Source: Thiotrichaceae bacterium UBA7357
GTDB lineage: Bacteria; Pseudomonadota; Gammaproteobacteria; Eutrophobiales; Eutrophobiaceae
Direction of reading: 5' to 3'
DNA: 64,000 nt
Assembly (NCBI GenBank): GCA_002470825.1
Contig: DKOR01000018.1
Coordinates: 120,482 to 184,481 of the forward strand
This document shows positions 1 to 21,157 of this stretch, one piece after another (position 1 is the stretch's first letter; every line of letters starts with the position of its first letter). Below the pieces are notes generated by a model. That model saw only the letters and a list, made by a program, of their open reading frames with translations, searched no databases and was not told where the DNA came from. A program made the translations under genes and the position numbers.

Positions 1-428
1 GGGATAAGTCCGGGCTTTAAAAAGATATCGGCGTCTAGTAAAAGCAGATAGGGCGTTTTGATTAGTTGACGGCCTTGTTCCAAAGCCCATAACTTACCAC
101 TCCAACCTTCAGGTAGTGGGGTGCCCATAACAACATGTAAATTATTCAAATTTACGGCGAGAGCTTTTTCGACAGTATCATCGGTAGATTGATCATCGAT
201 CAGTATTACATTTAGTCCTTCTCCTTGTTCTTTTAGAGCAGCGAGTGTTTTATCGATTGTTTCTGTCTCATCTCTTGCAGGAATAAGAACAGTGGTATTA
301 GATAAATCGAGGTCTTCTACTGATTGGCTATCGAGTGTTTCTCGGGTGCTCCAAGCACGACACGGTAGTAGTAATATTGCGAGCCAAATAAGCAATCCTG
401 GCATTACTGCCAAGAGTGTTATTTCCAT
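1..428 (-). CDS. Family 2 glycosyltransferase, 5' portion only (gene continues past window start); HpnB-like hopanoid-associated GT
   Basis: Reverse-strand translation from the ATG at 428..426 gives MEITLLAVMPGLLIWLAILLLP (TM) ...VLIPARDETETI...ILIDDQSTDDT...GTPLPEGWSGKLWALEQG, a GT2/DPM1-like fold with the GWxGKLWA motif recalled for HpnB. The start overlaps the hpnH stop (TAATG). Confidence 0.55.
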   Translation of the reverse strand, partial: MEITLLAVMPGLLIWLAILLLPCRAWSTRETLDSQSVEDLDLSNTTVLIPARDETETIDKTLAALKEQGEGLNVILIDDQSTDDTVEKALAVNLNNLHVVMGTPLPEGWSGKLWALEQGRQLIKTPYLLLLDADIFLKPGLI

Positions 429-1555
429 TACGCGACTTGTTTGTTACTACTGCAACTTTTGGCGGCTGTAGTTTTCGCAACTAGTTTTGGTGCGATTACC
501 TCATCTTTATAAAGTATAGGTAATTCAGGTGCCATTTCGCCATCAGTCCTAGGACCTCTCAGGAATACACCCAATGCTTTAAATGGATGGTTAACTGTGT
601 CATTGACAGCGGTAGCTTCGAAGCCGCAATGAACCATACAGTTATCACATTTTGGATTTTTTCCAGTACCGTAATTGTCCCATTCGGTTTCTTCCATTAA
701 GCCAGCAAAGGTTGATGCATATCCCTCGCCAACTAATAAATAGCAAGGTTTTTGCCAGCCAAAAACATTACGGGTTGGGTTGCCCCAAGGGGTACATTCA
801 TATGTCTGATTCCCTGCCAAGAAGTCTAAATATAAGGATGATTGATTAAAACGCCAATTTTTGCCAATGCCCAGTTTAAATAAGTCACGAAAAAGTTGTT
901 TACTCTCCGTCTTTTTTAGAAACACGTCTTGCTTAGGTGCTCTTTCATAGTGATATCCTGGGGATATAGTGACAGCCTCAACACCCAATCCCATCGCCAT
1001 GTCCATGAACTCGGCTACTTCTTCGGCGGGCTCATTTTGAAATAAAGTACAATTAATAGTGACGCGGAAACCCTTTCCAATAGCCAGTTTAATTACGCTT
1101 ATACATTTTTCGAAGACACCTTCTAGGCAAACCGAAGCATCATGTCGTTTTTTGTTACCGTCTAAATGGATAGAAAAAGTTAGATAGGGTGATGGTGTGT
1201 ATTTGTCAATATGCTTTTTTAGCAATAGGGCATTAGTGCAAAGATAAACAAATTTCTTGCGTCCAATGTAGCCATTTACTATCTGAGACATTTCTTTGTG
1301 AATCAATGGTTCACCACCAGCAATAGAGACAACAGGCGCTCCACATTCATCAATTGCATTCATGCACTCGTCATAACTTAGCCGTTTATCAAGAATCTCT
1401 TTTGGGTAATCAATCTTGCCACAACCGGCGCAAGCTAAATTACACCTGAATAAAGGCTCCAACATCAATACAAGAGGATATTTCTTTACACCACTGATTT
1501 TCTTACCGAGAATATATTTACCCATTCTGTATTGCTGAATAAAGGGGACACTCAT
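428..1555 (-). CDS. hpnH: Hopanoid biosynthesis-associated radical SAM protein HpnH (adenosylhopane synthase)
   Basis: 375 aa. CNLACAGC (CX3CX2C) lies near the N-terminus and the protein aligns end to end with recalled HpnH (LVLMLEPLFRCNLACAGCGKI..., YLCTNALLL, ECTPWG.P.RN.FGWQKPCYL, CDNCMVHCG). Confidence 0.85.
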   Translation of the reverse strand: MSVPFIQQYRMGKYILGKKISGVKKYPLVLMLEPLFRCNLACAGCGKIDYPKEILDKRLSYDECMNAIDECGAPVVSIAGGEPLIHKEMSQIVNGYIGRKKFVYLCTNALLLKKHIDKYTPSPYLTFSIHLDGNKKRHDASVCLEGVFEKCISVIKLAIGKGFRVTINCTLFQNEPAEEVAEFMDMAMGLGVEAVTISPGYHYERAPKQDVFLKKTESKQLFRDLFKLGIGKNWRFNQSSLYLDFLAGNQTYECTPWGNPTRNVFGWQKPCYLLVGEGYASTFAGLMEETEWDNYGTGKNPKCDNCMVHCGFEATAVNDTVNHPFKALGVFLRGPRTDGEMAPELPILYKDEVIAPKLVAKTTAAKSCSSNKQVA

Positions 1556-3703: not shown

Positions 3704-4786
3704 TTATTGAACAATCTTTTTCATTTCTTCAATAAATCTTTCTAAATCATTATTACTAATATCTCCCATACAAGAGATACGAAACAATGATTTGGCAAAC
3801 CCACCTTGTCCGGCATAGATGATAAAGCCAGCGTTCTTTAGTTTATCGTGTAGTTCTTCATAACTGATACCCTCAGGTAGCAGGAATGAATTTAGTACAC
3901 AGGAGGTTTCATTTCGTTCCAGTGAGGCTTTCATGTTTAATTCAAGCAAACCATTGCGAACAATGTCCATTCGTTGCCAGTATTGTTTCTGGCGTTTTCG
4001 CCAACCACCGGCATCGTTTAACTCATCTAATGCCTCGGCCAAGGCATAGAAGGTTTGTATTGATTGGGTGAAAGGTGTGCTATTGCTATCTTGTAGTTTC
4101 ATATAGGTCACAAGATCAAGATAGAGTGTGCGGGCAGGAGTTGCCGACATTTGTGTTATCGCTTCTCTATTACTGATAACGAATGAAGTGCCGGGGACAC
4201 CATGTAAACATTTATTTGCTGTTGCGGCGCAGGCAGCGATGTTCCATTCCTTGAATTTAATCTCTTCCGCACCAAAACTGCTAACGGCATCGAGCAAAAG
4301 TGGAATTCTCCCATGTTTATTAGAAAGTTCAGCAATGGCATCGATATCATTTAATCTTCCGGTGGTTGTTTCATGATGTACAACGGCAATATGGGATAGC
4401 TGTCTATTACATAGCAGCTCACTCTCTAACTTAGTCAGATCGATTTCCTCACCCCACTCATGATGAAGTATTACGTGTTCTATATTATGTGTTTTTGCTA
4501 TGTAACTTAAGCGTTCACCATAGACACCATTTTCTATAATTAAGACCTTCCCATGTGAAGGCACAAGACTAGTTATCATACCCTCCATTGCCGAGGTGCC
4601 AGAGCCAGTAAAGACTATGCTAGTCCATTGTTCTTCTGGCAGTTGATAAATATTTAGTAGATCGGTTTTGATCTTATTTTGTAATTTAATAAATTCTTGT
4701 TCACGATGACACAGATCGGGCTTTAATAGTGCCTGACGAACACGCTCACTTAAAACAACTGGACCAGGATTCAGTAATATAGTCAT
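3704..4786 (-). CDS. phnW: 2-aminoethylphosphonate:pyruvate aminotransferase (class V aminotransferase)
   Basis: 360 aa with the LLNPGPV N-terminus typical of the AGT/PhnW family. Last gene of the pepM-ppd operon. Confidence 0.75.
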   Translation of the reverse strand: MTILLNPGPVVLSERVRQALLKPDLCHREQEFIKLQNKIKTDLLNIYQLPEEQWTSIVFTGSGTSAMEGMITSLVPSHGKVLIIENGVYGERLSYIAKTHNIEHVILHHEWGEEIDLTKLESELLCNRQLSHIAVVHHETTTGRLNDIDAIAELSNKHGRIPLLLDAVSSFGAEEIKFKEWNIAACAATANKCLHGVPGTSFVISNREAITQMSATPARTLYLDLVTYMKLQDSNSTPFTQSIQTFYALAEALDELNDAGGWRKRQKQYWQRMDIVRNGLLELNMKASLERNETSCVLNSFLLPEGISYEELHDKLKNAGFIIYAGQGGFAKSLFRISCMGDISNNDLERFIEEMKKIVQ

Positions 4787-4788
4787 GA

Positions 4789-5943
4789 TTAAAAGCTGCT
4801 ATTAATATGTTTCATCAGTCTATTCAATACTTTATTTGGTGTGATGTCGGGTCTAGGTAGGTCTCCTATTGTGCCAGATGCTATTCTTAGATGGGCGAAT
4901 ACTGGCCCGTCTTGTGGTCCTATATTAAATAGCTTATCAATTATGTCGATTTCATTACTGGATAGACACACACTGTAACCACTTGCCTCTGCTACCTTCA
5001 AAAAATCGACATTACCACCAACGGTAGCTTGACCACCGGTAGAATCATGAACTTCATTATTCAATAGTATGTGGATTAGATTGTGACCTGCATAACTACC
5101 AATAGTAGCAAAATTACCCATACGCATCAGACCTGCGCCATCACCATCAATAATAACAACTTTTAAATCAGACCTAGCTAAAGCAACACCTAAACCTAAT
5201 GATGAAGCACAACCCATAGAACCCACCATATAAAAATGGTTGGAGCGATCATCGATGGCAAATAACTCACGACCGGTAAACCCTGTCGTCGCAATTAACA
5301 CTGTGTTTGCTTTAGGTGTCCGTTCGATAATTCTTTGCAAGACCTTATTACGATTAAGAGTTGATGCATCGGGATTATATGATGAATGAACAAGCGTCTT
5401 TCGTGATGAAATATCTTTCACTGGATTTTTATATAACGCCTGTGGCGCGACTGTACCTTTTTCCATTATAAAGGCGTAAGGTCTTTGTTCTTTTTTCATA
5501 TAATGATCTGCACGTTCTAGAGCTGGTCCTATATCTTCAACATTATTTGGAAATACTTCCCAAGGGACGCACATGGTGTCGAATAAATCTTTAGTTATTT
5601 GACCCATTAACTCATGTTGTGGCTCGTCTTTAATTCCAGGCTGACCACGATGAGTGCTTATAAGTAAATTTGGAATACGAAACACATAAGAAAGAGATGT
5701 TAACGGACTGATAGCGTTGCCTAGTCCTGAGTTTTGCATCATAACAACAGAACGCTGACCACCTATTGCTGCTCCTGCTGCGGTTGCTAATGCATCTCCT
5801 TCGTTAGCAGAGGAGACGTATTCCAATGTGTCATCGTTAATAACATAATTTATAAATGGTGTCAGGAATGAGCATGGCACACCCGTATAACGACTGAAAC
5901 CGAATTCGCGTGCCGCTTCAATAAATTCTTTTGCTTCGATCAA
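4789..5943 (-). CDS. ppd: Phosphonopyruvate decarboxylase (TPP-dependent)
   Basis: 384 aa with an N-terminal TPP-enzyme domain and a GDG...NN TPP-binding motif (VIIDGDGAGLMRMGNFATIG). Apparent TTG start 11 nt after the pepM stop. Confidence 0.8.
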   Translation of the reverse strand: MIEAKEFIEAAREFGFSRYTGVPCSFLTPFINYVINDDTLEYVSSANEGDALATAAGAAIGGQRSVVMMQNSGLGNAISPLTSLSYVFRIPNLLISTHRGQPGIKDEPQHELMGQITKDLFDTMCVPWEVFPNNVEDIGPALERADHYMKKEQRPYAFIMEKGTVAPQALYKNPVKDISSRKTLVHSSYNPDASTLNRNKVLQRIIERTPKANTVLIATTGFTGRELFAIDDRSNHFYMVGSMGCASSLGLGVALARSDLKVVIIDGDGAGLMRMGNFATIGSYAGHNLIHILLNNEVHDSTGGQATVGGNVDFLKVAEASGYSVCLSSNEIDIIDKLFNIGPQDGPVFAHLRIASGTIGDLPRPDITPNKVLNRLMKHINSSF

Positions 5944-5954
5944 TTTCGCTCTCT

Positions 5955-7592
5955 TTATTTTATAAAGTCGCTAGCGCGATCTATATCATCCAATGAATTT
6001 ACATCAAGCCAATGACCGTCTATATAATGAACATGGACTGGTTTCTCTTCTTGTATCAAATAATTTAACAAGTCAGGTATCGTAAGTTCATTGAAGTTTT
6101 TTGCTGACTTTAATTTTGTCAGCGCCGACTCTATCCATTCTCGGCCTTGTTTTCTGACACGCATCATCCCGATCCAGTAACCAGAAGGCTTTTTCTTAGA
6201 GGTATCAATTGAAGAAGATAGCTGTATTAATGTGACATCTTGCATAAACGGAGAACGATCATCATCTTTACTGCAATAGGCATAATCAGGATTGCCGGTT
6301 ATATTTGGATTATCCAAAGCAGAATCAACGATAATGACGACTTCCCCATCTGTTTCAATCAAGTCTCTCAGAATATATTCCCGAAACAATAGATCGCTAT
6401 AAAGAATCAACATATCGTCATTAAAATTTTCGTTTGCACAAATCAGTGTTTGTAGTTCATCACCTCTTTCGTAATCTTCATTGATACATTTCTCAATGCC
6501 GAGGAGATCTATCGCTTCCGCTTTATAACCTGCTATTACAGTAGATTTATTTATACCTACTTTTTTCAAGCCATCCATTAATCGACCTAGTAAGGTTTTA
6601 CCGCCAATACTGATCATCGCCTTTGGTTTATCATGTGTCAGCTCTCGTAATTCACTGCCCCTGCTTGCAGCTAGGATGACGGCATGGACATCTGATTTTT
6701 GTACTAAATATCTATCTTGTGCCTGACTTAATTCATCAGCACCTTGTAACTGAAAGATATGATCAACACTGGCAATTTTATCTTCAATATCGGCTAGAGA
6801 TTCTGAATCAAAAATAGCTTTACTAGTTTTTTCCATTTCATGAACAGAAGAGCGAATTAAATGATTGGCCCAAATAACCAAATTAATTCCTGCCTTACGA
6901 AAGGCATCTGTTGGTGTACTATAATATTTAGTTGGGACAATAACCAAGGGTGAGCGCTCAGCCCATTCTTTTGCAAAGGTGAGGATCTCATCTGGTCTGG
7001 AGAGTTTACTATGAATCAATACACCATCAGCACCGGCTTGACGATAGGCCTCTGCTCGCTTCAGTGCTTCATTTAATCCCCAGCCGGCAATCAGCGCTTC
7101 AACTCTCGCAACGATACTAAAATCATCATCGGATTGACTATCTTTACCTGCTTTAATTTTGCCACAAAATTCATCAATATCGGCCAAGGGTTGTTTGTTA
7201 CCATCGATAAAGCTATTTGTTTTTGGAAATTGTTTATCCTCTATACAAACGCCAGCAATATCACGTTGTTCTAGTTTTACGACAAGTCGACGCATATTGT
7301 TGAAATTACCATAACCGGTATCACCATCTAACAAGATTGGAATGCTTGTTGCGTCAGACATAAACTCTAGCATGTCGACTACCTGAGTCCAGCTTGCTTC
7401 GTTGCTGTCACGCACACCAAATTGTGCTGATATGGCAAGACCACTACCCCAGATACCTTTAAAACCGGCACTTTCTACAATACTTGCAGAAATACCATTA
7501 TGTGCTTCCAGAATGAATTCAAGTTCATTTGATTCAAGCAAAGAGCTTAGTTGTTTACACTTGCTAATTTTTTCACGACTATTTTTAGACAT
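5955..7592 (-). CDS. pepM: Phosphoenolpyruvate phosphomutase fused to a C-terminal LicC/CTP-transferase-like nucleotidyltransferase domain
   Basis: 545 aa. The N-terminal ~290 aa are an ICL/PEP mutase fold ([10 protein letters not shown]..., EDKQFPK..NSF); the C-terminal ~250 aa carry the NTase motif ([14 protein letters not shown]...[12 protein letters not shown]). Confidence 0.85.
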
Positions 7593-7611
7593 TTTTATAT
7601 TTAGCTAATGA

Positions 7612-8361
7612 TTAATAATTGATAGGTGATAATTTAGGGATTATCTCATTTTGGGCACGTTCAATATCTTCAGGAAAATCTATTTCGATCCAAGGAATGC
7701 CAGTAACATCTTCATAGCCAAATTGCTCGGGATATATTAATAATAGATCGCGAATTGCTTCTTCATACGGTGTATTGTTTTTGTTTTTTGCAAGATAGTC
7801 ATTTATTCGCCCAAGCAATGATGTGCCTATTAGCTTAGTAAACTTGAAAAAGCCGACTGATTCACCTTGTATAGCGTAATCAAGCTTTTCATCGATATTT
7901 TTTCTAAACTCATTTATTTGAGCATTTTTATCAACACAAATTTTTACAGGTTCATTACCAGGGATAAAATCACGGTCGAGCAAAAGGCAGTTTTTTATAT
8001 TCGTATTGATCAGACGAGTTATCATTTCATGACCATACAGAACATCAGCATCCATCAAAATAAATTCAGATTCATTGTATAGTGTTTCTTGTGCACAACT
8101 AAGGCTGATAATACTTCCTTCGGCATAACGATCATTATAAATATAGTTTATTGGTATTGTTTCATTGCTGAGATGAGTCTTTATCATTTCAGACTGATAG
8201 CCAGTGACTATTGTTATTTCTTCGATATGATTTGCCGAAAGAATTTCAATATGACGCTTTAATAGACTTTTCCCTTCAAACTTCAGTAATGACTTAGGTT
8301 GATTGGCAGCATGCATACCGAGTCTGTTACCAATGCCTGCGGCAAGAATAATAGCCTTCAT
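7612..8361 (-). CDS. LicC-like nucleotidyltransferase (CTP:phospho-base cytidylyltransferase family)
   Basis: MKAIILAAGIGNRLG N-terminus from the ATG at 8361..8359. The ORF is open further upstream to 8505, but that extension has no NTase similarity. Confidence 0.7.
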   Translation of the reverse strand: MKAIILAAGIGNRLGMHAANQPKSLLKFEGKSLLKRHIEILSANHIEEITIVTGYQSEMIKTHLSNETIPINYIYNDRYAEGSIISLSCAQETLYNESEFILMDADVLYGHEMITRLINTNIKNCLLLDRDFIPGNEPVKICVDKNAQINEFRKNIDEKLDYAIQGESVGFFKFTKLIGTSLLGRINDYLAKNKNNTPYEEAIRDLLLIYPEQFGYEDVTGIPWIEIDFPEDIERAQNEIIPKLSPINY

Positions 8362-8906
8362 AATCTTGTTATTTATACCTTTGTGTAAATGGTTCTTGAA
8401 CCAAAGGACTTCAAGTCCCTCATTTGCAACTATCAGGAATAGTTGGATTGTATCATTGTTACAAAAAATGTCCTTATGTACATTTGCAGATGAAAATATA
8501 GTCATGAATAATATATGTTAATAAGCCATTATGAATGATTATAATCAATATAATTAGCCCTATAAATAAATATTACTGAGCAACTTGACGATGAGAGTAT
8601 GTGATTCATTTGTCAAAGAGCAATGAATTATCGGTCAGGCAAGGTACTATTTTAGGGTAAGTCTTGATTAATTGCTGGCTTCATGGGTTATATTAAAATT
8701 GTAAGTAAGTATGCAAATACACAAAATTGTTTTTCATCTCTATGGCATGATTTCTGTAAAATCAAATCAACTAATATATCTTCGGCTAATACTTTCTTTT
8801 TTTATTTAATTCAAATTGAATATCTATTATTTTTTACTCGACTATCTATGCAGGTCATTAATTGAAAAATTTTTTGTAATTATATTCATGTACGTTTCTC
8901 GAACAA

Positions 8907-11351: not shown

Positions 11352-12644
11352 ATGACTGACAACATGCCAGAAAAAATTGGAAAATATGAAGTTCGAAATG
11401 AGATCAATCGCGGGAGTATGGGAGTCGTTTATCTTGGACACGATCCTTACGTAAATCGACATGTTGCTTTGAAGCTCGCATTTCTAGACTCACTTAATGA
11501 ACCAGAGTTTGGTGAGCGATATCGTAAAATGTTTTTTAATGAAGCTCATACTGCTGGTTTACTAACGCACCCCAATATTATTAATATTTATGATGCTGGT
11601 GTAGATGGTGACAATTGTTATATTGTTATGGAATATATTGAAGGTGGTAATACACTTAAGCCATATTGTGATTCCAATATGTTATTACCTATCAATAAAG
11701 TCGTTGAAATAATATTTAAATGTGCAAGTGCACTTGACTACGCACATCGACAAGGGGTTGTACATAGAGATATTAAACCTTCAAATATACTTTTTACGCC
11801 CGACCAAAATGTAAAGATTGCGGATTTTAGTATTGCTCATATATATAACGCAGATTCAACGACGACACAGGTGGGTGGAATGATGGGGTCGCCAAGATAT
11901 ATGTCTCCGGAACAACTTAAAGAAGAATACATAACTAACCAGAGTGATATTTTTTCATTAGGTGTGGTCATGTATGAGTTGTTGACAGGACGACAACCAT
12001 TTGCTGCAAATAGCTTTTCAGGATTGGTAAATAGTGTATTAAATGATGAGCCGCCGCCAATGAATAACTATCGGAATAATCTGCCTGAAGCTTTAAAAGA
12101 GATCGTAAATAAAGCTTTGAACAAAGATCTTTCTAATCGCTACAAGATGGGATTAGATTTTGCTGCAGATCTTACTAAAGCATTTGATATGTTGGGGAAG
12201 CCTAGAGAAGATATTTTTGTTAAAGAAAGATTTAATGCTGTCAAAACATTAGAATTTTTTGCTGATTTTGACGACACAGAAATTTGGGAAATTTTACATG
12301 CTAGTACATGGAAAGCTTATCATACTAATGATGATATTATTGTTGAAGGAGATATAGATGATTGTTTTTATGTCATCGTTAATGGCAGTGTTGAGGTGAC
12401 GAAAAATAGATCAGTCATTCGAAGGTTGGAAAAAGGCGATTGTTTTGGTGAAATGGGTTATCTATCTAAAACTAAGCGAACTGCCACTATCAAATCACTT
12501 GATTGTACGTCGATAATGAAAATTAATTCAACAGTGATTAATCAGGCATCAATAAATTGCCAGGTACGATTTTACAAGGTTTTTTTGAGAACCTTAATAA
12601 ATCGACTATCTGAAACTACAGAAAAGATATCTCAGGAGGTCTGA
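11352..12644 (+). CDS. Eukaryotic-like Ser/Thr protein kinase fused to a C-terminal cyclic-nucleotide-binding (CAP-family) domain
   Basis: 430 aa. Hanks kinase motifs are present (GRGSMGVVY, VALK, HRDIKPSNILF, ADFSIA, SPEQ); the C-terminal ~120 aa show a cNMP-binding pattern (IIVEGDIDDCFYVIVNGSVEV..GDCFGEMGYL..RTATIKS). Confidence 0.8.
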   Translation: MTDNMPEKIGKYEVRNEINRGSMGVVYLGHDPYVNRHVALKLAFLDSLNEPEFGERYRKMFFNEAHTAGLLTHPNIINIYDAGVDGDNCYIVMEYIEGGNTLKPYCDSNMLLPINKVVEIIFKCASALDYAHRQGVVHRDIKPSNILFTPDQNVKIADFSIAHIYNADSTTTQVGGMMGSPRYMSPEQLKEEYITNQSDIFSLGVVMYELLTGRQPFAANSFSGLVNSVLNDEPPPMNNYRNNLPEALKEIVNKALNKDLSNRYKMGLDFAADLTKAFDMLGKPREDIFVKERFNAVKTLEFFADFDDTEIWEILHASTWKAYHTNDDIIVEGDIDDCFYVIVNGSVEVTKNRSVIRRLEKGDCFGEMGYLSKTKRTATIKSLDCTSIMKINSTVINQASINCQVRFYKVFLRTLINRLSETTEKISQEV

Positions 12645-12962
12645 TTAATATCAGGGTATTAGGGGATAATGGGACAATATAGAATTAATTTATTGGATAT
12701 CCTTTATATGGAGGGTTCCAATGCTTGTAATGTGATTTAATAAAACATCTTATTTAATTGGACAATAATTTCTCATATGTTGGTTAAAGATATTAACTTT
12801 TAAATGAGCATGCAGTTAGAAGTTATTGTTGAAAATAGTAAAAATTAAAAACCTAAAACTTATAGGCTGAGAATGCTAAAGAAGATATAATATTCTTGAT
12901 GTTTCAAGTAATAACGAAATATATATATAACTTATATTACCTGTGTAAAGTATTAAATTTAG

Positions 12963-13036
12963 TGTCCCCAACAGGAGTCGAACCTGTAATCTACTCCTTA
13001 GGAGGGAGTTGCGTTATCCAATTACGCTATGGGGAC
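12963..13036 (-). tRNA. tRNA-Arg (anticodon CCU)
   Basis: 74-nt cloverleaf read by hand: GTCCCCA / GCGT..ACGC / ACTCC-CTCCTAA-GGAGT / ACAGG-TTCGACT-CCTGT / TGGGGAC-A. CCA is not encoded. Confidence 0.9.
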
Positions 13037-13061
13037 ATATGAAGTATATCCACACTCTAAT

Positions 13062-13093
13062 TTTAGCCATACTTTAGTTGCGCATCCAGTGTT
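13062..13093 (-). promoter_or_regulatory. Candidate sigma70 promoter for tRNA-Arg (TTGACA -35 with a weak -10)
   Basis: The reverse strand shows TTGACA, then an 18-20 nt spacer, then actaaa/TAAAGT about 25 nt upstream of the tRNA 5' end. Sequence inspection only. Confidence 0.25.
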
Positions 13094-13296
13094 ATCTGTC
13101 AATTAAGCTACTCAAGATCCTTATAATTCTACAAGTATATAAATAATACAATATACTAAAAGAAACAGGTCATAGTTTAAATCACGAATCAGGATTGGAT
13201 GGTTATATTCAACTCAGCTAATAATGTATTTTACTTTCATCATGATTATTATTTTGAAATGGTAAAGTAATCAAAATCAACAAAGGCATAACAAAT

Positions 13297-14259
13297 ATGT
13301 ACGATACATCATCTTTACTCAATCAAAGAAAATTTCCAATGATTAAGCGAAAGAGCCTAACTACGCTACAAATCAATATTGGCTTGAAGTGTAATCAGCA
13401 GTGTTTTCATTGCCATGTTAATTCGAGCCCCAAAAGAAAAGAAAAAATGTCTAATGCCACTATTAAGGCAATTAAGCTATTTCTAAAAAATAATAATATT
13501 GAATCACTTGATATCACTGGTGGTGCGCCAGAACTTCACTCAGAATTCAGATCTCTTATAAAATATGCGCGTGAAAATGATGTGCATGTTATAGATCGGT
13601 GTAATCTGACTATTTTAGAAGAGCCAGGGATGGAATACCTTGCGCAATTTTTAGCAGATTATGAAGTAGAAATTATAGCTTCTCTACCTTGCTATGAACT
13701 AGAAAATGTTGATAAACAACGAGGTGTAGGTGTGTTTGAGAAAAGTATCAGGGGTTTGAAAAAATTGAATAAAGTAGGTTATGGACATTCAAATTTGGAG
13801 TTACCTTTGAATTTAGTATTTAATCCTCAGGGGGCAGCATTGCCACCACCACAAGATTATCTGGAACGAACTTATAAAAAAGAATTATTGGAGAGGCATG
13901 GAATTAAATTCAATAAACTTTTTACATTATGTAATATGCCAATAAACAGATTTGGAAGTACCTTGGTATCCAAAAATCAATTAGATGACTATATGAGAAT
14001 GCTTACGGGTTCGCATAGGGAAGAGAATCTAAGAGATGTGATGTGTCGTAGTTTAATCAGTGTTGACTGGCAAGGTTATGTATATGATTGTGATTTTAAT
14101 CAAATGTTGAATATAAATTTAAATGATGCCGAAGAAAAAATATCGATTTCTGATTTGGTTGGTAATGATATTGAAGGTGATATAATTGCAGTGCGGGATC
14201 ATTGTTATGGTTGTACGGCAGGGCAAGGTAGTAGCTGTAGCGGTGCATTAACTGCTTGA
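13297..14259 (+). CDS. Radical SAM / C-terminal Cys-rich domain protein, ArsS-like (TIGR04167-type rSAM/selenodomain protein, Cys version)
   Basis: 320 aa with an N-terminal CNQQCFHC (CX3CX2C), the ITGGAPELH glycine-rich motif and a C-terminal Cys cluster CYGCTAGQGSSCSG. Immediately followed by its two usual partner transferases. Confidence 0.75.
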   Translation: MYDTSSLLNQRKFPMIKRKSLTTLQINIGLKCNQQCFHCHVNSSPKRKEKMSNATIKAIKLFLKNNNIESLDITGGAPELHSEFRSLIKYARENDVHVIDRCNLTILEEPGMEYLAQFLADYEVEIIASLPCYELENVDKQRGVGVFEKSIRGLKKLNKVGYGHSNLELPLNLVFNPQGAALPPPQDYLERTYKKELLERHGIKFNKLFTLCNMPINRFGSTLVSKNQLDDYMRMLTGSHREENLRDVMCRSLISVDWQGYVYDCDFNQMLNINLNDAEEKISISDLVGNDIEGDIIAVRDHCYGCTAGQGSSCSGALTA

Positions 14260-14265
14260 GATTAT

Positions 14266-14946
14266 ATGCAAAAAAAAATATCTATTATAATCCCAACACT
14301 AAATGAAGCCGACCAAGTTGAACGACAGCTGGCTAAGCTTCAGACGTTACGGAAAAATGGTCATGAGGTGATTTTAGTAGATGGTGGCAGTATTGATGGT
14401 ACAGTTTCATTAGTAATATCATTATGTGATCAAGTTTATGAGTCTCAACGATCACGCTCAATTCAAATGAACTATGGAGCAAGAAAAGCGACGGGAAAAT
14501 GTTACGTATTTTTACATGCTGATACAATTCTTCCAGATGACATTATTCAGTTTTTGTTGAAGATTAATAATATTGAAGAAAAATGGGGCAGGTTCGATAT
14601 AAGTCTGTCAGGAAGACACTGGCTATTCCGTGTTATTGAGTCATTTATTAATTGTCGATCAAGTTTTACAGGTATTGTTACAGGTGATCAGGTTATTTTT
14701 ATTGGAGAGGAATTGTTTTCCAGAGTGGGAGGATATCCAGAAATAGCTTTAATGGAAGATATTGCTATATCTAGTTTGTTGATTAAATTTTCAAAGCCAA
14801 TTCGAACTAGAAAAAAGGTAATCAGTTCTAGTCGACGTTGGGAAAAAAATGGAATATTTAAAACAATTATAACAATGTGGATATTAAGATTATTATATTT
14901 CTTTGATTATGATATTAATAAAATAGCAAGATACTATGGAAAATGA
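14266..14946 (+). CDS. Family 2 glycosyltransferase (rSAM/selenodomain-associated transferase 2, TIGR04283-like)
   Basis: 226 aa with the ISIIIPTLNE...VILVDGGSIDGT GT2 N-terminus. Starts 6 nt after the rSAM stop and overlaps the next gene by 11 nt. Confidence 0.75.
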   Translation: MQKKISIIIPTLNEADQVERQLAKLQTLRKNGHEVILVDGGSIDGTVSLVISLCDQVYESQRSRSIQMNYGARKATGKCYVFLHADTILPDDIIQFLLKINNIEEKWGRFDISLSGRHWLFRVIESFINCRSSFTGIVTGDQVIFIGEELFSRVGGYPEIALMEDIAISSLLIKFSKPIRTRKKVISSSRRWEKNGIFKTIITMWILRLLYFFDYDINKIARYYGK

Positions 14947-15580
14947 ATTTTCTAGAGGAGCTCTCTTAATCTTTACAAAAGCACCTGTGCGCGGACATGT
15001 TAAAACACGATTAATCCCAAGCATTGGTCTAGAGCATGCTACTTCGATATATCAAGAAATTTTAACAAAGACGCTAAGCACGGCAAGAAAATCTAATTTT
15101 TCTTCTATACAGGTATGGGTTGATGGTGGGGTTGAGCATGCTTATTTTAAGCGTTTAAAAAGTAGGCATAAGGTTAAATTTTACAAACAGAAAGGTAAGG
15201 ATTTAGGAGTACGAATGATGAACGCCTTTAAAATTGCTTTACGTCAATATTCTCATGCTGTTTTAATTGGTGGAGACTGTCCTTCATTAGAATATTTAGA
15301 TTTAATAATGGCAAGTGACTATCTTAAGAACAATACAGATGTAGTCTTAGGCCCTGCAATTGATGGCGGTTACTATTTGATAGGTTTAAATAAAAACAAT
15401 GCTCAAATATTCACAAATGTAAAATGGGGTAAAAGCGGAGTGTTTGCTCACACTTGTGAAAATATAAGTGCTCTAGGCTTGAAGCTTGACTTGTTGCCAG
15501 AGCGTTGGGATGTTGACCGAACTGTTGATTTACTACCTTACTTCAAGATGAAACGAAAAAACGCCACTCTTTACTACTAA
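14936..15580 (+). CDS. DUF2064 / MobA-like nucleotidyltransferase-fold protein (rSAM/selenodomain-associated transferase 1, TIGR04282-like)
   Basis: 214 aa with LIFTKAPVRGHVKTRL...DLGVRMMNAF...LIGGDCP...GPAIDGGYYLIG. The G-x-D-x-P and DGGY motifs are typical of the DUF2064 family. Confidence 0.65.
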   Translation: MENEFSRGALLIFTKAPVRGHVKTRLIPSIGLEHATSIYQEILTKTLSTARKSNFSSIQVWVDGGVEHAYFKRLKSRHKVKFYKQKGKDLGVRMMNAFKIALRQYSHAVLIGGDCPSLEYLDLIMASDYLKNNTDVVLGPAIDGGYYLIGLNKNNAQIFTNVKWGKSGVFAHTCENISALGLKLDLLPERWDVDRTVDLLPYFKMKRKNATLYY

Positions 15581-15853
15581 ACAACAAACCTGTTTCGACA
15601 AGTGTCAGTGAAATGACAGAATGTTGAGTCTGTTCTTCATTTGTGTGGTCATCAGTATTTGATGTTTATGGTGAATCTCAATGTCAAGATTAACGATTAA
15701 ATCAATTAGTAAATAGGTCATATTTGATGTGAATGCCCTACACTTTTAGCAGATAAATAGTTTCTATAAGAACCAATACTCAAGTTTATTTTAACTTTCT
15801 GTAACGCATTGCGTAGACATACTTTATTCTATAATCTCCGATACGGTAGAGAA

Positions 15854-15944
15854 GGAGAGGTGTCCGAGTGGTTTAAGGAGCACGCTTGGAAAGCGTGTAT
15901 ACGTTAATAGCGTATCGAGGGTTCGAATCCCTCTCTCTCCGCCA
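15854..15944 (+). tRNA. tRNA-Ser (anticodon GGA), type II with long variable arm; CCA encoded
   Basis: GGAGAGG acceptor, anticodon arm CACGC-TTGGAAA-GCGTG, variable arm ATACG..CGTAT, T-arm GAGGG-TTCGAAT-CCCTC, then TCTCTCC-G-CCA. The six-frame ORF 15824..16138 (-) overlapping it is spurious. Confidence 0.9.
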
Positions 15945-16227
15945 TTACTATGAATAAACCATAAACTTTCATTATACATACCCAAAGGCATACTCCAAAT
16001 AATTAACTGTAGTTTGTGTATTGTTATATTGAGTAACGTGTTTGTGCCGTGAAAAATAATTGGTCTAGTCGAAAAATCGACTTCTGCTAACCACACCTCC
16101 GGGATCCCCCCGTGTTCTGAAAAACGCATAGGCACCATCTACATAGCATTTTGGATGGGTGATTTTAGTTTTTGTACATCTGCTTACTATGATAGTTTTA
16201 GAATGAGAAAGACAAATATTAGGACCA

Positions 16228-17319
16228 CTATAATTTTGTATTTTTTATACGAATAATACAGTCAATTGTAGCATGCTGGAAATCCATAAATTCATTCGGT
16301 TTACATCCAATAACTTTTGGATCAAATGACCCCAAAACATCAATTTCTAATTGGTTGGCTAATTTCCTTATTAAAGGCTCGACGACTTCCATTGTTAGTC
16401 TGTTTTTCGAATTAATGTTAGCCCATACATTTGGATGGTAGGGAGTAAGAAGAAAAACTGGAGTAACACCTTTGTTAATTAGAGAGCGTATGTGTCTACG
16501 ATATAGATCTAATGCATTAAGATCATAGTATGTGCCTTCCGTAAGATATGTTGGTTCTATCAACGGGATTGGAAAAACTTTCGAATTATCTATTTTTTTT
16601 GCAGAATAGATGATACTTCCATCAGGTAACAAAACAGAGTCTTCTAATCCAACCTCTTCGTCAAAAGAAGGAGCATCCTTGATTGATTCTTTGCCATTAG
16701 CGGCCAAAAACATTGCTTTTTTTATAGATCGAATCGTATATTCAAGACTTAATAGATTTGATAGTTTAGCACTGTTGAACTTGTCAGAGTTTGTCGTGAG
16801 TGTATCAACCTGTTCCAACTCCTTCAATGCATTCATATATACATCTGGGTACGCATTCTGCCAAGCTAAGCCTTTACCAATATGGAATACCCAAGGATCT
16901 ATACAAAAAATAATTTTATTTGGTTTTTGATTAGAGTTGGTAGCAGCAAAGGAAAGTGCAATATGATCTTCAAGTAGAGCACCAGAAACTGCGAGATTAA
17001 AAATCTTTTCGCACATTTCTGCCAAGGAACTTTTTTTTCGAAAACTACTCAATTGCATTGCGTGGCTGCTACCAATTATCACGCAGTCAACTTCACCAAC
17101 TGATTGCGCTAATTCAATCTTAATCTTTCGATCATTCCATGAATGAGATTTGAAAAATAAGCCATGATGAGATTGTATCAATCTATTAGCGTATTCCTTC
17201 GAGCTATTACTGGATACCCTGTAAATTCCTGCAGGGTCATACACAATGTTGACTGAAACAGCTGCGGACAACACTAATGTAGCAAACAATCCTAATATTA
17301 TCAGATAGCGTTTCGACAT
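16228..17319 (-). CDS. Periplasmic SGNH-like O-acyltransferase partner protein (AlgJ/AlgX/DltD/PatB-like)
   Basis: 363 aa with an N-terminal signal anchor, a GSSH (GDS-like) motif at VIIGSSHAMQ and a C-terminal DFQH. Immediately downstream of the MBOAT gene, 3-nt gap. Confidence 0.5.
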   Translation of the reverse strand: MSKRYLIILGLFATLVLSAAVSVNIVYDPAGIYRVSSNSSKEYANRLIQSHHGLFFKSHSWNDRKIKIELAQSVGEVDCVIIGSSHAMQLSSFRKKSSLAEMCEKIFNLAVSGALLEDHIALSFAATNSNQKPNKIIFCIDPWVFHIGKGLAWQNAYPDVYMNALKELEQVDTLTTNSDKFNSAKLSNLLSLEYTIRSIKKAMFLAANGKESIKDAPSFDEEVGLEDSVLLPDGSIIYSAKKIDNSKVFPIPLIEPTYLTEGTYYDLNALDLYRRHIRSLINKGVTPVFLLTPYHPNVWANINSKNRLTMEVVEPLIRKLANQLEIDVLGSFDPKVIGCKPNEFMDFQHATIDCIIRIKNTKL

Positions 17320-17322
17320 TGT

Positions 17323-18867
17323 TCAGAACTGAAAATATAGGAATTGGCTCGTCTTTTTAAGATTCAGCAAAGCAAATCCTAAAACAAGCCCAGCCATTAC
17401 TGCCCATACCTTGGTAGGACGCCAACTCAACCAACTTATCTGACGCTCATTCCGACTTGAGTCCAATGCAAGTGAGTAATGGGTGAGCCATTGCTGAACA
17501 TTGGGCAATATCCAGACAACAAATAACCCTCCAACAAGCCAACAGATAGTAACCTTTCCAGCACCACCACCTATTAATGGGGCCAAACCATTAAAAATGA
17601 TGTAATCGCTCCGTACCATGTGGCTCAGGAATGGGTAAAACTGATTGGGTAAACTAATCCCATTCAGCCCTATCATGCCCGATAAAATACTCATTGCTGC
17701 ATCCATATTTTCCGCACGGAAAAACACCCATGCAGCCGTTACCGCTATAAAAGTCAAAAAAATCATAAATATATGGGCAAATTTTCCTAATGGCACGGCG
17801 CTTGTTCCAATCAGTGTACGCCAACTATGGTTGAGCACTAAGTACGCACCGTGCAACCCTCCCCAAATAATGAAATTCCACCCAGCACCGTGCCATAAAC
17901 CGCCTAGAAGCATGGTTGCCATTATATTCCGATAGCGGATGAATTTACCATGACGGTTGCCCCCGAGAGGTATGTAGAGATATTCTCGTAAGAATGCGGA
18001 CAATGTTATGTGCCAACGCCGCCAGAAATCAATAATATTTGAAGCTTTGTAAGGTGAATTGAAGTTCAGCGGAAGACGAATATTGAACATGCGCGATAAA
18101 CCTATAGCCATATCCGAATATCCTGAAAAATCGAAATACAATTGCAGGGAGTAAGCTAGTGCCCCAAACCAAGCTTCAAAAAACATTGACTGCTCACCAC
18201 TAGCAGCGCCATTAAAAACCGGTGTGGCATATAAGGCGAACTGGTCTGCAAGTACAACTTTTTTGAATAACCCAACAGCAAAAATTGTAATGCCAATAGC
18301 CAAATGATCATAATTTAGTTTATATACCCAATCTTTTGCAAACTGAGGCATCATTTCCTTATGGTGGACAATCGGGCCAGCAATTAACTGAGGAAAGAAA
18401 GTGACAAATAAACAATAATGCAGAAAATTATATTCTCTTGTTTTTCCTTTATATGCATCGACTAAATAAGCTATTTGCTGAAAGGTAAAAAAAGAAATTG
18501 CCAAAGGTAAAATAATGGTCTTTAAATTAAAGTCTAATCCAATTGCCAGGTTCAAATTATCTACAAAAAAATTGGCGTATTTAAAATAACCGAGAAGTAC
18601 AATATTCCCAGAAATCCCAATAAAAAGTAATGATTTCTCATGGGACCAGACCTTCTTTACTAACATCACTCCAATCGAATAATTAAACAGAATCGAGAAT
18701 AGTATTAATCCAAGATAAGCAGGATTCCACCATCCATAAAAAAAAAGTGAGGCACCCACTAACCAAGAAATAGCAATTCTATGATGCCCTTTCTTGCCAA
18801 TCATAAAAAAGCCAATCAATGTAAATGGTAAAAATAGAAAGATGAATGCGTAAGAGTTGAAAAGCAT
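17323..18867 (-). CDS. MBOAT-family membrane-bound O-acyltransferase (AlgI/DltB/PatA-like)
   Basis: Start taken at MLFNSYAFIFLFLPF (ATG at 18867..18865), which is the typical AlgI/DltB N-terminus; the ORF is open further upstream to 18984. MBOAT signature WRRWHITLSAFLREYLYIPLGG plus an invariant His. Confidence 0.85.
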   Translation of the reverse strand: MLFNSYAFIFLFLPFTLIGFFMIGKKGHHRIAISWLVGASLFFYGWWNPAYLGLILFSILFNYSIGVMLVKKVWSHEKSLLFIGISGNIVLLGYFKYANFFVDNLNLAIGLDFNLKTIILPLAISFFTFQQIAYLVDAYKGKTREYNFLHYCLFVTFFPQLIAGPIVHHKEMMPQFAKDWVYKLNYDHLAIGITIFAVGLFKKVVLADQFALYATPVFNGAASGEQSMFFEAWFGALAYSLQLYFDFSGYSDMAIGLSRMFNIRLPLNFNSPYKASNIIDFWRRWHITLSAFLREYLYIPLGGNRHGKFIRYRNIMATMLLGGLWHGAGWNFIIWGGLHGAYLVLNHSWRTLIGTSAVPLGKFAHIFMIFLTFIAVTAAWVFFRAENMDAAMSILSGMIGLNGISLPNQFYPFLSHMVRSDYIIFNGLAPLIGGGAGKVTICWLVGGLFVVWILPNVQQWLTHYSLALDSSRNERQISWLSWRPTKVWAVMAGLVLGFALLNLKKTSQFLYFQF

Positions 18868-19999
18868 ATTTTTATTATATCTAACGACCTCTAAATTGTA
18901 ACGCAACATCTTTCGGTATGAAAAAAATAAGAAGTGAAGTGTTGAATAATGGAACACTATGCGTATTTTGATAGTAAGGAACATACTTCATAGGAACTAA
19001 GACTCAGAAGGATGGGTACTAACTGATTTAGAAATGGACCATCTTTTTGGTAAGGATTTAGTTCTCTCAGTTTTACTGAAAACATCTCTTGCTGCTGTGA
19101 CTGTTGTAAATAACAATTAGCTTAATCTAGCTGTATTGCCAATAAGTTACTATAACGATGAAGAGCTGTTTTTTGTAAATTAATTCTGTAGCTTATGTTG
19201 GATTGTAAGCTTCTTAATCGCTTTACTTCCTCGAGTCTTTTCGTTATCTATTACGACATATGTAAAGGACATACCAGAAAAAATATTTCTTGAAATAGCA
19301 TTCAATTTAGATTTACCAGCAATGAAAGTTCTTCATTTTTTTGTAGATAAATATCAATCCGTCTTTACACACAGAAGACATAAATGGTTAAGAAGAGGTA
19401 TAAAAGTATATGCAGAGGTATTTATGGCACTTTTACATAAAAAATATCTGAGTTGGCTTATCTATAATAGTTAAGAAAAGTGATGTTCTTTCTAAGGTGC
19501 CAACATAAAACGTATCCTGAGAATCAAGGTAACTAGGATGTGCTGTTTCTATCCTCAGAATTATTCTCTAAGAGTAATCCATTTCCTGTTCTTGAGTGTA
19601 GTAAAATTTGTCGATATGTCGTAACATTTTGATGTAATAAAATTATACAGATTGTGTAACAGAAGGTTGTCTAAATTAGGTGAGATTCCCTATATTTTCT
19701 CAATTTTAGCGAAATTAATAGAGATACTGGATAACTCTAGACTGTAACCACTGCCATATTCTGTATGCGACTAATTGAATAAAATTATATTTCTAGATTT
19801 AGATAATGATCCTATATTTGATATTCAGATACTATATGAATATAGAGTAACTGTGATTTGTAATGAACGCAGATTCAATTATATTATAAATATTAAGATG
19901 CTGGGTCGATTATTCTAATGAGATAAAAGGATTTACTGCTATACATTACGTATAAAGGCTTTTTCGATAACTTCATCAATTATAAATTTACTTCACACA

Positions 20000-21157
20000 A
20001 TGCCAAATATATTTAAATTTTTGTATCAACTCTATATAGCCTTATTTTATATATTTTTTGTCGCGAACACCTATGCCTACGAGAATGATGTCAATGCATC
20101 ATCTTGTGAAGAACGACAGCAATTTACCTTTAGCTGGCAATTTAATACACACTGCGACATGGTCCCAAGAGGTGGAACCACTCATGGAACAAAAATATCT
20201 TTGGATCCAAGCCCACATCAAGGCTGGTTAGATCTAAAAGAAAAAGGGCTATCGAAGTTTGAAAAAGATCGAAGAGCTATATTAGCTATGTCCGGGCCTT
20301 ATCGCACAAGTTTTGATTTTATTGAAATAGTCGGTTATATCCCTAGTTTCCGCCCAGACAAACCATATCAATCTTGGGGGACTGAATATGTTTACGTAGT
20401 TGAAGATCAGGACGATTTTATTAGCCTGCAACATATCATGGTTATGTATGTAAAAACCAACGATAAAATTTCAGAGCCAATAGTAATGAAACATTGGCGT
20501 CAGGATTGGCAATATGAGAAACAAGAAATTCTTAGCTACATTGGCAATAACACATGGAAAAAGGTAAGTCTGTCAAAAGAAGAAATTAATGGTAACTGGT
20601 CACAAGCTGTTTATCAGGTTGAAGATTCTCCTCGATATGAATCATTTGGTCGATGGGAACATAACTCTGATTTTTCCACTTGGCTGAGTGCAAAGACGTG
20701 GCGTCCCCTGCCTCGACGCGAATACAGTGTCCGTGATGACTATCAGATTCTCGATGGCTTTAATCGTCATACTATAGTGCCGAGCGGTTGGGTTCATGAA
20801 CAGGAAAACTACAAATTAGTCCTAAATTCCAATGATAAATTTAAACAAAAAAAATCTTATTTATCTAAGGAGTTAGGTTTAAATCGATATGAACGAATTG
20901 TCGAACATGATTTCACTCCGGGTCACCGTTATTGGGAAAAAACCAACTCTTACTGGCGAGATGTACGAATTATATGGTCAGAACTTATTCATAAAAAATC
21001 AGTGCTAGTGATGGAGAAATTAGTAGATGGACAACCTCTTTTTATCAACCTGTTCGATTACGCGGAAAAATTACAAATTCAGCCATATGATTCTGAAAAG
21101 GGAAAAATATTTATACGTAAGACTCTAACCGATTATATAAAGATTCATGCTTCCTAG
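20000..21157 (+). CDS. Hypothetical secreted/periplasmic protein (signal peptide, Trp/Tyr-rich, no recognised domain)
   Basis: 385 aa. The N-terminus IALFYIFFVANTYA|YEN looks like a Sec signal peptide. No family recognised by eye. Preceded by a 1 kb ORF-free AT-rich tract. Confidence 0.55.
   Translation: MPNIFKFLYQLYIALFYIFFVANTYAYENDVNASSCEERQQFTFSWQFNTHCDMVPRGGTTHGTKISLDPSPHQGWLDLKEKGLSKFEKDRRAILAMSGPYRTSFDFIEIVGYIPSFRPDKPYQSWGTEYVYVVEDQDDFISLQHIMVMYVKTNDKISEPIVMKHWRQDWQYEKQEILSYIGNNTWKKVSLSKEEINGNWSQAVYQVEDSPRYESFGRWEHNSDFSTWLSAKTWRPLPRREYSVRDDYQILDGFNRHTIVPSGWVHEQENYKLVLNSNDKFKQKKSYLSKELGLNRYERIVEHDFTPGHRYWEKTNSYWRDVRIIWSELIHKKSVLVMEKLVDGQPLFINLFDYAEKLQIQPYDSEKGKIFIRKTLTDYIKIHAS

Follow-up and report, generated by a model that had tools for sequence, protein, structure and literature searches.

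Organization of the locus

The DNA analysed here, a 64,000-nucleotide (nt) stretch of contig DKOR01000018.1 from the uncultured marine gammaproteobacterium Thiotrichaceae bacterium UBA7357 (hereafter the window), carries three tightly packed genes between two tRNA genes, and the families of their products point to an arsenosugar biosynthesis module. The first gene, arsS (13297..14259, plus strand), encodes a radical S-adenosylmethionine (SAM) protein of 320 amino acids (aa) with a C-terminal Cys-rich DUF3641 domain. It is followed on the same strand by a gene for a family 2 glycosyltransferase (GT2) of the TIGR04283 family with a GT-A fold (14266..14946, 226 aa) and one for a DUF2064 protein of the TIGR04282 family with a predicted CofC/FbiD-like nucleotidyltransferase fold (14936..15580, 214 aa). 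A 6-nt gap separates arsS from the GT2 gene, and the GT2 and DUF2064 genes overlap by 11 nt. The trio is preceded by tRNA-Arg(CCT) on the minus strand (12962..13036; 70 bits with Rfam), a conserved chromosomal landmark just upstream of the module and not a member of the pathway, and is followed by a second landmark, tRNA-Ser(GGA), on the plus strand (15854..15944). These were exactly the two tRNA genes detected by ARAGORN in the window, in agreement with Rfam. A preliminary description of the locus had reported the same tRNA bracket, three tightly packed genes and the same spacing, and both the ARAGORN results and the coordinates of the open reading frames (ORFs) agree with it.

The AT-rich intergenic region 5' of arsS (13037..13296, plus strand) is the presumed promoter site. 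Besides the two tRNAs, Rfam detected no riboswitch or RNA family at the locus, including this region, and promoter and terminator scans gave chance-level results only, with 19 sigma-70-like matches found upstream of arsS vs. 18.7 expected. Sub-threshold Rfam matches (sX4 and plastid untranslated region families) overlap the tRNAs and were rejected as artefacts. The match to the proteobacterial small RNA sX4 (15842-16054, plus strand; 36.6 bits vs. a gathering score of 70) starts at tRNA-Ser and was probably driven by it. Several metagenome annotations list a gene (101-104 aa, without a Pfam match) for a 104-aa minus-strand ORF (15824-16138) that lies antisense over tRNA-Ser; this ORF is almost certainly spurious.

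Family assignment of the three proteins

All three proteins scored well above the curated NCBIfam cut-offs of their families (300 bits for TIGR04167, 182 for TIGR04283 and 134 for TIGR04282), as the preliminary description had anticipated. The ArsS protein matched the TIGR04167 equivalog model with 445.7 bits over residues 16-318 (model positions 2-303 of 303), compared to 47.7 bits for the next best family, and also matched PF04055 and PF12345 (DUF3641, 183 bits). Its cluster motif CNQQCFHC places a CX3CX2C arrangement at C32/C36/C39, and its C-terminal motif reads HCYGCTAGQGSSCSG; the earlier identification of a CX3CX2C radical SAM protein with a C-terminal Cys cluster was thus confirmed by the PF12345 match and by the invariance of the motif. 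The latter was assessed in an alignment of nine ArsS sequences comprising the window protein, sister species, four plasmid-borne proteins from Proteobacteria and Bacteroidota, and the ArsS of a Pseudanabaena arsM-TVP38-arsS cluster. Invariant positions were C32/C36/C39, C102, C250, C265 and the stretch H302-C303-x-G-C306-T-A-G-x-G-S-S-C314-x-G. When a tenth sequence was added, C102 dropped to at least 90% conservation and the other positions stayed invariant. The window protein is 43% identical to the cyanobacterial ArsS, with the CX3CX2C and HCxGCTAGxGSSCxG motifs unchanged, and the ArsM partner of that ArsS scored 570 bits on NF038099 (cut-off 400).

It had also been proposed that this protein carries Cys at a position occupied by selenocysteine in some homologues. 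The published motif of TIGR04167 selenoproteins is GxxU, which the G-S-S-C314 of the window protein fits; direct demonstration was not obtained, as none of the 94 ArsS homologues fetched has a TGA at the Cys314 position and all of them use Cys codons. No solved structure of ArsS was found. The ArsS of Synechocystis has been described to convert dimethylarsenite, DMAs(III), and SAM into 5'-deoxy-5'-dimethylarsinoyl-adenosine (DDMAA; Xue 2019; Cheng 2021), and the window protein is predicted to be a 5'-deoxyadenosyl transferase acting likewise on dimethylarsenite.

The GT2 protein scored 246.1 bits on TIGR04283 and also matched PF00535. Its invariant residues (D39/G41/S42/D44 in VDGGSxD, H84-x-D86, G140-D141-Q142, M163-E164-D165 and S188/R190/E193) include the GT-A nucleotide-binding and H-x-D metal-binding signatures. 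A single-sequence AlphaFold model of this protein was unusable (predicted local distance difference test score, pLDDT, of 35). The DUF2064 protein scored 192.7 bits on TIGR04282 and also matched PF09837; its predicted structure was confident and most closely resembled the fold of the CofC/FbiD guanylyltransferases. Catalytic motifs are kept in both transferases. All three proteins are named 'arsenosugar biosynthesis' in NCBIfam, where the name of TIGR04282 says glycosyltransferase.

Judged from these assignments, the trio is the already catalogued TIGR04167/TIGR04283/TIGR04282 module, formerly termed 'rSAM/selenodomain-associated' in NCBIfam/TIGRFAMs and now listed as arsenosugar biosynthesis proteins, and it has the commonest gene order of that module. 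The statement that ArsS is the only characterised member of the trio was supported.

Genomic context and inheritance

The position of the trio between two tRNA genes had led to the suggestion that it occupies a tRNA-flanked slot and was possibly acquired horizontally. Composition gave no sign of this. Compared to the other 46 genes of the window, the codon-usage distance was typical (z of -0.15 for arsS, +0.53 for the GT2 gene and +0.13 for the DUF2064 gene). GC content was somewhat low, particularly in the GT2 gene (z of -1.3, -2.1 and -0.7, respectively), but the neighbouring pgi, cbs and Ser/Thr kinase (stk) genes are equally low. Neither tRNA is involved in att-like repeats, the only repeats being short AT-rich chance repeats within coding regions, and no integrase, transposase or other mobility gene was found between or beside the two tRNAs or elsewhere in the window.

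Synteny was analysed by using the flanking kinase, and not ArsS, as query against species-representative genomes, which yielded 78 loci. About 40 of them retain the block phnW-ppd-pepM-ntp-(kinase 2)-pgi-cbs-kinase, and 3' of the kinase a minus-strand tRNA-Arg(CCT) serves as a conserved landmark. In at least nine species the module comes right after this tRNA, as the bare trio in L032, L036, L041 and L046 (ArsS 59-64% identical to the window protein) and together with manC, treated below, in L010, L012/L085, L020, L037 and L086. In the sister species L086 (ArsS 78% identical) the order is tRNA-Arg(CCT), manC, trio, tRNA-Ser(GGA), i.e., the bracket is the same as in the window, and tRNA-Ser(GGA) lies downstream of the trio in L085 as well. 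A different arrangement is found on the 2.75-Mb contig L098 (ArsS 62%), where the kinase is followed by DUF1302/DUF1329/BNR/MMPL genes, manC and the trio, and then by a flagellar cluster. This looks like a fuller ancestral layout. Relative to it, the MMPL cluster, manC and the flagellar genes would have disappeared from the locus in the species of the window, with the trio retained. The identities of ArsS, GT2 and DUF2064 fall alongside those of the kinase in eight genomes, kinase identities of 80, 75 and 65% corresponding to ArsS identities of 78, 68 and 64%.

Because codon usage is host-like, island hallmarks are lacking, synteny is shared and divergence keeps pace with that of the kinase, the trio is a normal, vertically inherited chromosomal locus and not a recent acquisition. 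That it is instead a genomic islet recently inserted between the two tRNAs is very improbable. Apart from the bracket itself and the low GC of the GT2 gene, what speaks for an islet is that tRNA-Ser(GGA) is a real integration hotspot in the sister strain L085, where the DNA past it (12390-20310) contains an insertion sequence (IS) element along with genes for a serine recombinase and a terminase. However, the variable, island-like DNA sits past tRNA-Ser, outside the bracket; the same two tRNAs enclose the module in the sister species, and the module adjoins tRNA-Arg in relatives with an ArsS identity as low as 59%. The comparison with relatives and with the GC and codon usage of the flanks, both of which had been proposed as checks, therefore refuted recent acquisition, also by the standard that the preliminary description had set for it. 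In the window, the variable slot past tRNA-Ser (15945-21157) holds a 363-aa protein without family match, an MBOAT/DltB-like acyltransferase (z of +2.3 for GC at third codon positions, GC3) and a DUF6607 protein; the corresponding region of L086 (12614-19897) holds cytochrome b and RND efflux genes.

Association of the module with arsenic methylation

Neither the window nor the 10 kb past each of its ends contained an ars, arsM or sel gene, according to the Pfam and NCBIfam annotation of all genes and to tblastn searches. The tblastn baits were the verified Pseudanabaena ArsM and an approximate ArsM consensus probe, which served as bait only; searched against the window and 1.5 Mb of related loci, neither had a match. 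A methyltransferase gene just past the window end was rejected as an arsM candidate, since it encodes UbiG.

The neighbourhood of arsS in other lineages was surveyed in annotated plasmid contexts and 80 metagenomic ArsS loci, with counts taken from the 32 loci that span 8 kb or more; since contigs were often truncated, these counts are lower bounds. Partners were GT2 (TIGR04283-like) in 19 loci, DUF2064 in 17, TVP38/FAD-oxidoreductase in 14, DUF547 in six, ArsM-family proteins in five, a methylthioadenosine phosphorylase (MTAP) in one and ManC in none. The commonest order was arsS-GT2-DUF2064. A neighbouring arsM was lacking in 27 of the 32 loci, so that arsS without an adjacent arsM is the rule and not an anomaly. 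Bona fide arsM genes do accompany the same genes elsewhere. They occur in the orders arsS-GT2-DUF2064-arsM (L108) and arsS-arsM (L159), with 356 and 359 bits, respectively, on NF008823 (cut-off 263), and in the order arsS-PiT-AsSugarArsM (L104), with 542 bits on NF038099. A further locus has the order arsS-ArsM-like-GT2-DUF2064 (L125); its ArsM-family member and that of L172 are sub-threshold. An Acinetobacter plasmid cluster carries an ArsM-family methyltransferase, a phosphate transporter and mtnP, and its TVP38/FAD-oxidoreductase is 40% identical to that of the cyanobacterial arsM-arsS cluster. These gene neighbourhoods link the trio to arsenic methylation in several lineages. The preliminary description was thus right that no arsM or other ars gene lies in the window, but its conclusion that substrate and product are unknown was overstated in view of the 27 loci without arsM, the arsM genes joined to the same genes elsewhere and the existing NCBIfam names.

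The trio-linked methyltransferase of the Acinetobacter plasmid (L093, 13262-14299; 345 aa) is an ArsM-family protein with 177 bits against the cut-off of 263, annotated as 'methyltransferase domain-containing'. The subfamily to which it belongs is highly conserved and very large, with 8000 matches at E ≤ 1e-10, and its members are often labelled arsenite methyltransferase by JGI. The 120 best matches were all close relatives with at least 69% identity, those with names belonging to Burkholderiales and Nitrotoga. A 339-aa ORF beside arsS in B. glumae was considered as a further candidate but matched no NCBIfam family.

The lack of an ArsM-family gene in the 84 kb around the module and beside it in about ten relatives would also suit an organism without endogenous ArsM, in which the same enzymes work on methylated arsenic scavenged from seawater (phytoplankton dimethylarsenic, DMA), for detoxification or for arsenosugar lipids. 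The lineage is abundant in the marine plankton: the window proteins are 100% identical to proteins on many marine metagenome contigs, one of them 189 kb long, and the identical ArsS sequence is indexed in 75 blocks of assemblies, for which all sampled contigs with a stated origin are marine. Retention of the module while manC, the MMPL cluster and the flagellar genes were lost, compared to L098, suggests selection for it. Nevertheless, the absence of arsM from the neighbourhood is uninformative given that most other ArsS loci lack it too, and the approximately 84 kb inspected is a small share of the genome if this resembles related assemblies with contigs of 2.2-2.85 Mb. Genes for DMA uptake or reduction were not identified either. 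We therefore consider scavenging without an own ArsM possible but on the whole unlikely.

Proposed pathway

Taken together, this uncultured marine gammaproteobacterium probably has in the trio an operon of the ArsS arsenosugar module that belongs to the core chromosome and has been inherited vertically. We propose for it a scheme of four steps. First, by homology to the Synechocystis enzyme, ArsS would cleave SAM reductively and add the 5'-deoxyadenosyl radical to dimethylarsenite, yielding DDMAA; either an ArsM encoded at another locus or the environment would supply the dimethylarsenic substrate. Second, a methylthioadenosine (MTA) or purine-nucleoside phosphorylase (PNP) encoded elsewhere in the genome would remove adenine, giving 5-deoxy-5-dimethylarsinoyl-alpha-ribose 1-phosphate, as gene neighbourhoods in other lineages suggest. 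Third, the fold of the DUF2064 protein suggests that it may act as a CofC/FbiD-like nucleotidyl (probably guanylyl) transferase that activates the sugar phosphate, or the acceptor, as a nucleoside diphosphate (NDP) derivative. Fourth, the TIGR04283 protein, as a member of the inverting GT2 family, would move the arsenoribosyl group onto glycerol or a lipid acceptor to form a beta-riboside.

Phosphorolysis to a 5-substituted alpha-ribose-1-phosphate would be the natural next step after ArsS, since DDMAA is, like MTA, a 5'-substituted 5'-deoxyadenosine. A gene for an MTAP/PNP-family phosphorylase adjoins the module in four unrelated lineages: in B. glumae, with the order TIGR04282-TIGR04283-mtnP; in Acinetobacter, whose mtnP product scored 315 bits on TIGR01694 (cut-off 275); in L102, with the order arsS-DUF2064-PNP, 1-nt gaps and a PNP of 353 bits (cut-off 218); and in L121, where the trio is followed by an MTAP-like gene of 273 bits, just below the cut-off of 274.85. 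The last step would also agree in stereochemistry. GT2 enzymes invert, and natural arsenosugars have the beta-riboside configuration; an alpha-linked NDP-ribose donor would therefore lead to a beta-riboside.

Compared to Synechocystis sp. PCC 6803 ArsM/ArsS, the window protein belongs to the same ArsS family (the TIGR04167 equivalog). The gene context differs: in cyanobacteria arsS is co-transcribed with arsM, whereas here it is co-operonic with two transferases and no arsM lies within the 84 kb inspected. Within the NCBIfam module, the version in the window is minimal, without the frequent partners TVP38/FAD-oxidoreductase, DUF547, YiiX, MTAP and ArsM, whereas sister species add manC. The DUF2064 family differs from CofC/FbiD of F420 biosynthesis in its low identity (16-20%), its own invariant GxDCP and DGGY motifs and the lack of association with F420 genes. 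A C-As bond is also formed by ArsL, the radical-SAM-type enzyme of arsinothricin biosynthesis, but ArsL cleaves SAM non-canonically, transfers a 3-amino-3-carboxypropyl group and belongs to an unrelated family, and the window protein matched no ArsL model.

The closest parallel to the first two steps is found in the hopanoid side chain, where the radical SAM protein HpnH adds a 5'-deoxyadenosyl group and the phosphorylase-like HpnG then removes adenine, leaving a ribosyl derivative. The proposed ArsS route would follow the same logic of radical SAM adenosylation and subsequent adenine removal by a PNP/MTAP-family enzyme. The acceptor is a hopene carbon in the one case and arsenic in the other, the C-terminal domain of HpnH is DUF3463 instead of DUF3641, and reciprocal HMM matches between ArsS and HpnH are weak. 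We know of no nucleotidyl activation step in hopanoid synthesis. HpnH itself is encoded in the window (428-1555, minus strand; 538 bits, cut-off 225), 12 kb from ArsS and beside HpnB, whose gene lies just past the window start (L096, 11128-12240). It is a second radical SAM enzyme transferring a 5'-deoxyadenosyl group in addition to ArsS. As squalene/phytoene synthase is encoded past the other window end, the organism probably makes extended hopanoids.

The manC-containing block and lone transferase pairs

In this order, the module is usually found as a four-gene block manC-arsS-GT2-DUF2064, which stays intact in two different chromosomal contexts. manC encodes a bifunctional mannose-1-phosphate guanylyltransferase/mannose-6-phosphate isomerase (TIGR01479, 659 bits) and lies upstream of arsS, with a gap of 5 to about 30 nt, at 8521-9969 in L085/L086, 8537-9973 in L087/L088, 8547-9995 in L098 and 8537-9973 in L099. 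It is missing from the locus in the window, as it is from the 32 loci of other lineages. In the 2.66-Mb polished long-read metagenome-assembled genome L088 (10965-12264), GT2 and DUF2064 are split into fragments of 170, 58 and 130 aa. Since both are intact on the short-read contig L087 (10965-12267), which has an identical ArsS, the splits are probably assembly frameshifts and not pseudogenes.

Several observations weigh against the proposed scheme. The co-operonic manC of the sister species is left unexplained by it, and this linkage could mean that GT2 uses GDP-mannose instead. In L100 (9373-10708) and L054 (4764-6054), no arsS adjoins the GT2-DUF2064 pair, and the cyanobacterial (Pseudanabaena) arsM-arsS cluster has neither transferase within 8 kb; because of these arsS-free pairs and this transferase-free cluster, the transferases may not be dedicated to the product of ArsS. 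Moreover, ArsM-family genes were not detected in the 64-kb window, the 10 kb on either side of it or up to 10 kb from the module in about ten relatives of the order. Finally, steps two to four are inferred, since no experiment on TIGR04282 or TIGR04283 proteins was found in the literature searched, where genome papers just repeat the PGAP name. The manC block and the arsS-free pairs leave room for a GDP-sugar-dependent step or a broader transferase role. The pair in L100 directly adjoins pgi and a phosphonate cluster.

These features could also be read as those of a module that, in this lineage, does not act on arsenic. ArsS would then adenosylate a different soft nucleophile with S, Se or P, or an altogether different substrate, and the transferases, joined by ManC in sister species, would make an envelope glycoconjugate that depends on GDP-sugars. 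The four genes moved as a unit between two chromosomal contexts of the order, a block seen in none of the 32 loci of other lineages; arsenic genes are absent nearby, and no characterisation of the transferases was found. Against this, ArsS reached 446 bits on an equivalog model and lacks none of the invariant Cys residues and motifs of the cyanobacterial, arsM-linked enzyme, GT2 and DUF2064 proteins of these families are encoded in operons with verified arsM elsewhere, and ManC is dispensable for the trio, as the species in the window lacks it at this locus. We regard a non-arsenic role as improbable and retain the arsenosugar module as the preferred interpretation.

Elements of these views may be combined, if only speculatively. 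An abundant marine heterotroph without its own ArsM might use the minimal module on phytoplankton dimethylarsenic or another soft heteroatom nucleophile, and the product might pass through phosphorolysis, guanylyl activation and the inverting GT2 into a membrane or envelope glycoconjugate, the manC of sister species reflecting GDP-sugar chemistry. We consider this combination rather unlikely. If true, it would fill the long-standing gap of enzymes acting downstream of ArsS in the synthesis of arsenosugars or arsenolipids and make heterotrophic bacterioplankton a source of marine arsenosugars.

Other genes of the window

The rest of the window is core chromosome, with HpnH, dxs, a 2-aminoethylphosphonate cluster, pgi, a gene for a CBS protein and one for a Ser/Thr kinase with a cyclic-nucleotide-binding domain, as well as dnaX, recR, mutL, miaA, hfq, hflXKC, purA, rnr, ribosomal protein genes, dnaB, alr, radA, ffh and maeB. 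The 10 kb past the window hold HpnB, Mla genes, glcDEF and RNase G on one side and sdhCDAB, the UbiG methyltransferase and squalene/phytoene synthase on the other. The nearest species-representative genome is 'Thiotrichaceae bacterium UBA7359', in which the flanking kinase is 90% identical; relatives are uncultured Gammaproteobacteria, with Methylohalomonas lacus as a cultured but more distant one.

The 2-aminoethylphosphonate cluster (3704-8505, minus strand) encodes a PhnW/AepZ transaminase, a phosphonopyruvate decarboxylase, a phosphoenolpyruvate (PEP) mutase-nucleotidyltransferase fusion and a further MobA/IspD-like nucleoside triphosphate (NTP) transferase. It adjoins pgi in about 40 species representatives of the order, which points to a phosphonate being activated with a nucleotide for use in a phosphonoglycan or phosphonolipid. 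We weighed a functional tie between this cluster and the trio but rejected it. Synteny of the cluster with pgi and the kinase holds across the whole order, the module has left the cluster in L087, L088 and L099, and the modules of other lineages lack phosphonate genes. The kinase with the C-terminal cyclic-nucleotide-binding domain (11352-12644, plus strand) is present as a single copy here, compared to two paralogues of about 60% identity that flank pgi-cbs in most relatives (L008-L053).

Implications

What remains of interest is general to the family, namely the uncharacterised transferases and the question of where marine heterotrophs obtain their arsenic substrate, and little of it is specific to this locus. 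Enzymes that turn the product of ArsS into arsenosugars or arsenosugar lipids have not been identified in the literature searched. Neighbourhood and fold evidence now provides a testable order for them, from an MTAP/PNP phosphorylase through a CofC-like nucleotidyltransferase to an inverting GT2. If this lineage really makes arsenosugars, heterotrophic bacterioplankton would add to the marine organoarsenic pool that is usually credited to algae and cyanobacteria.

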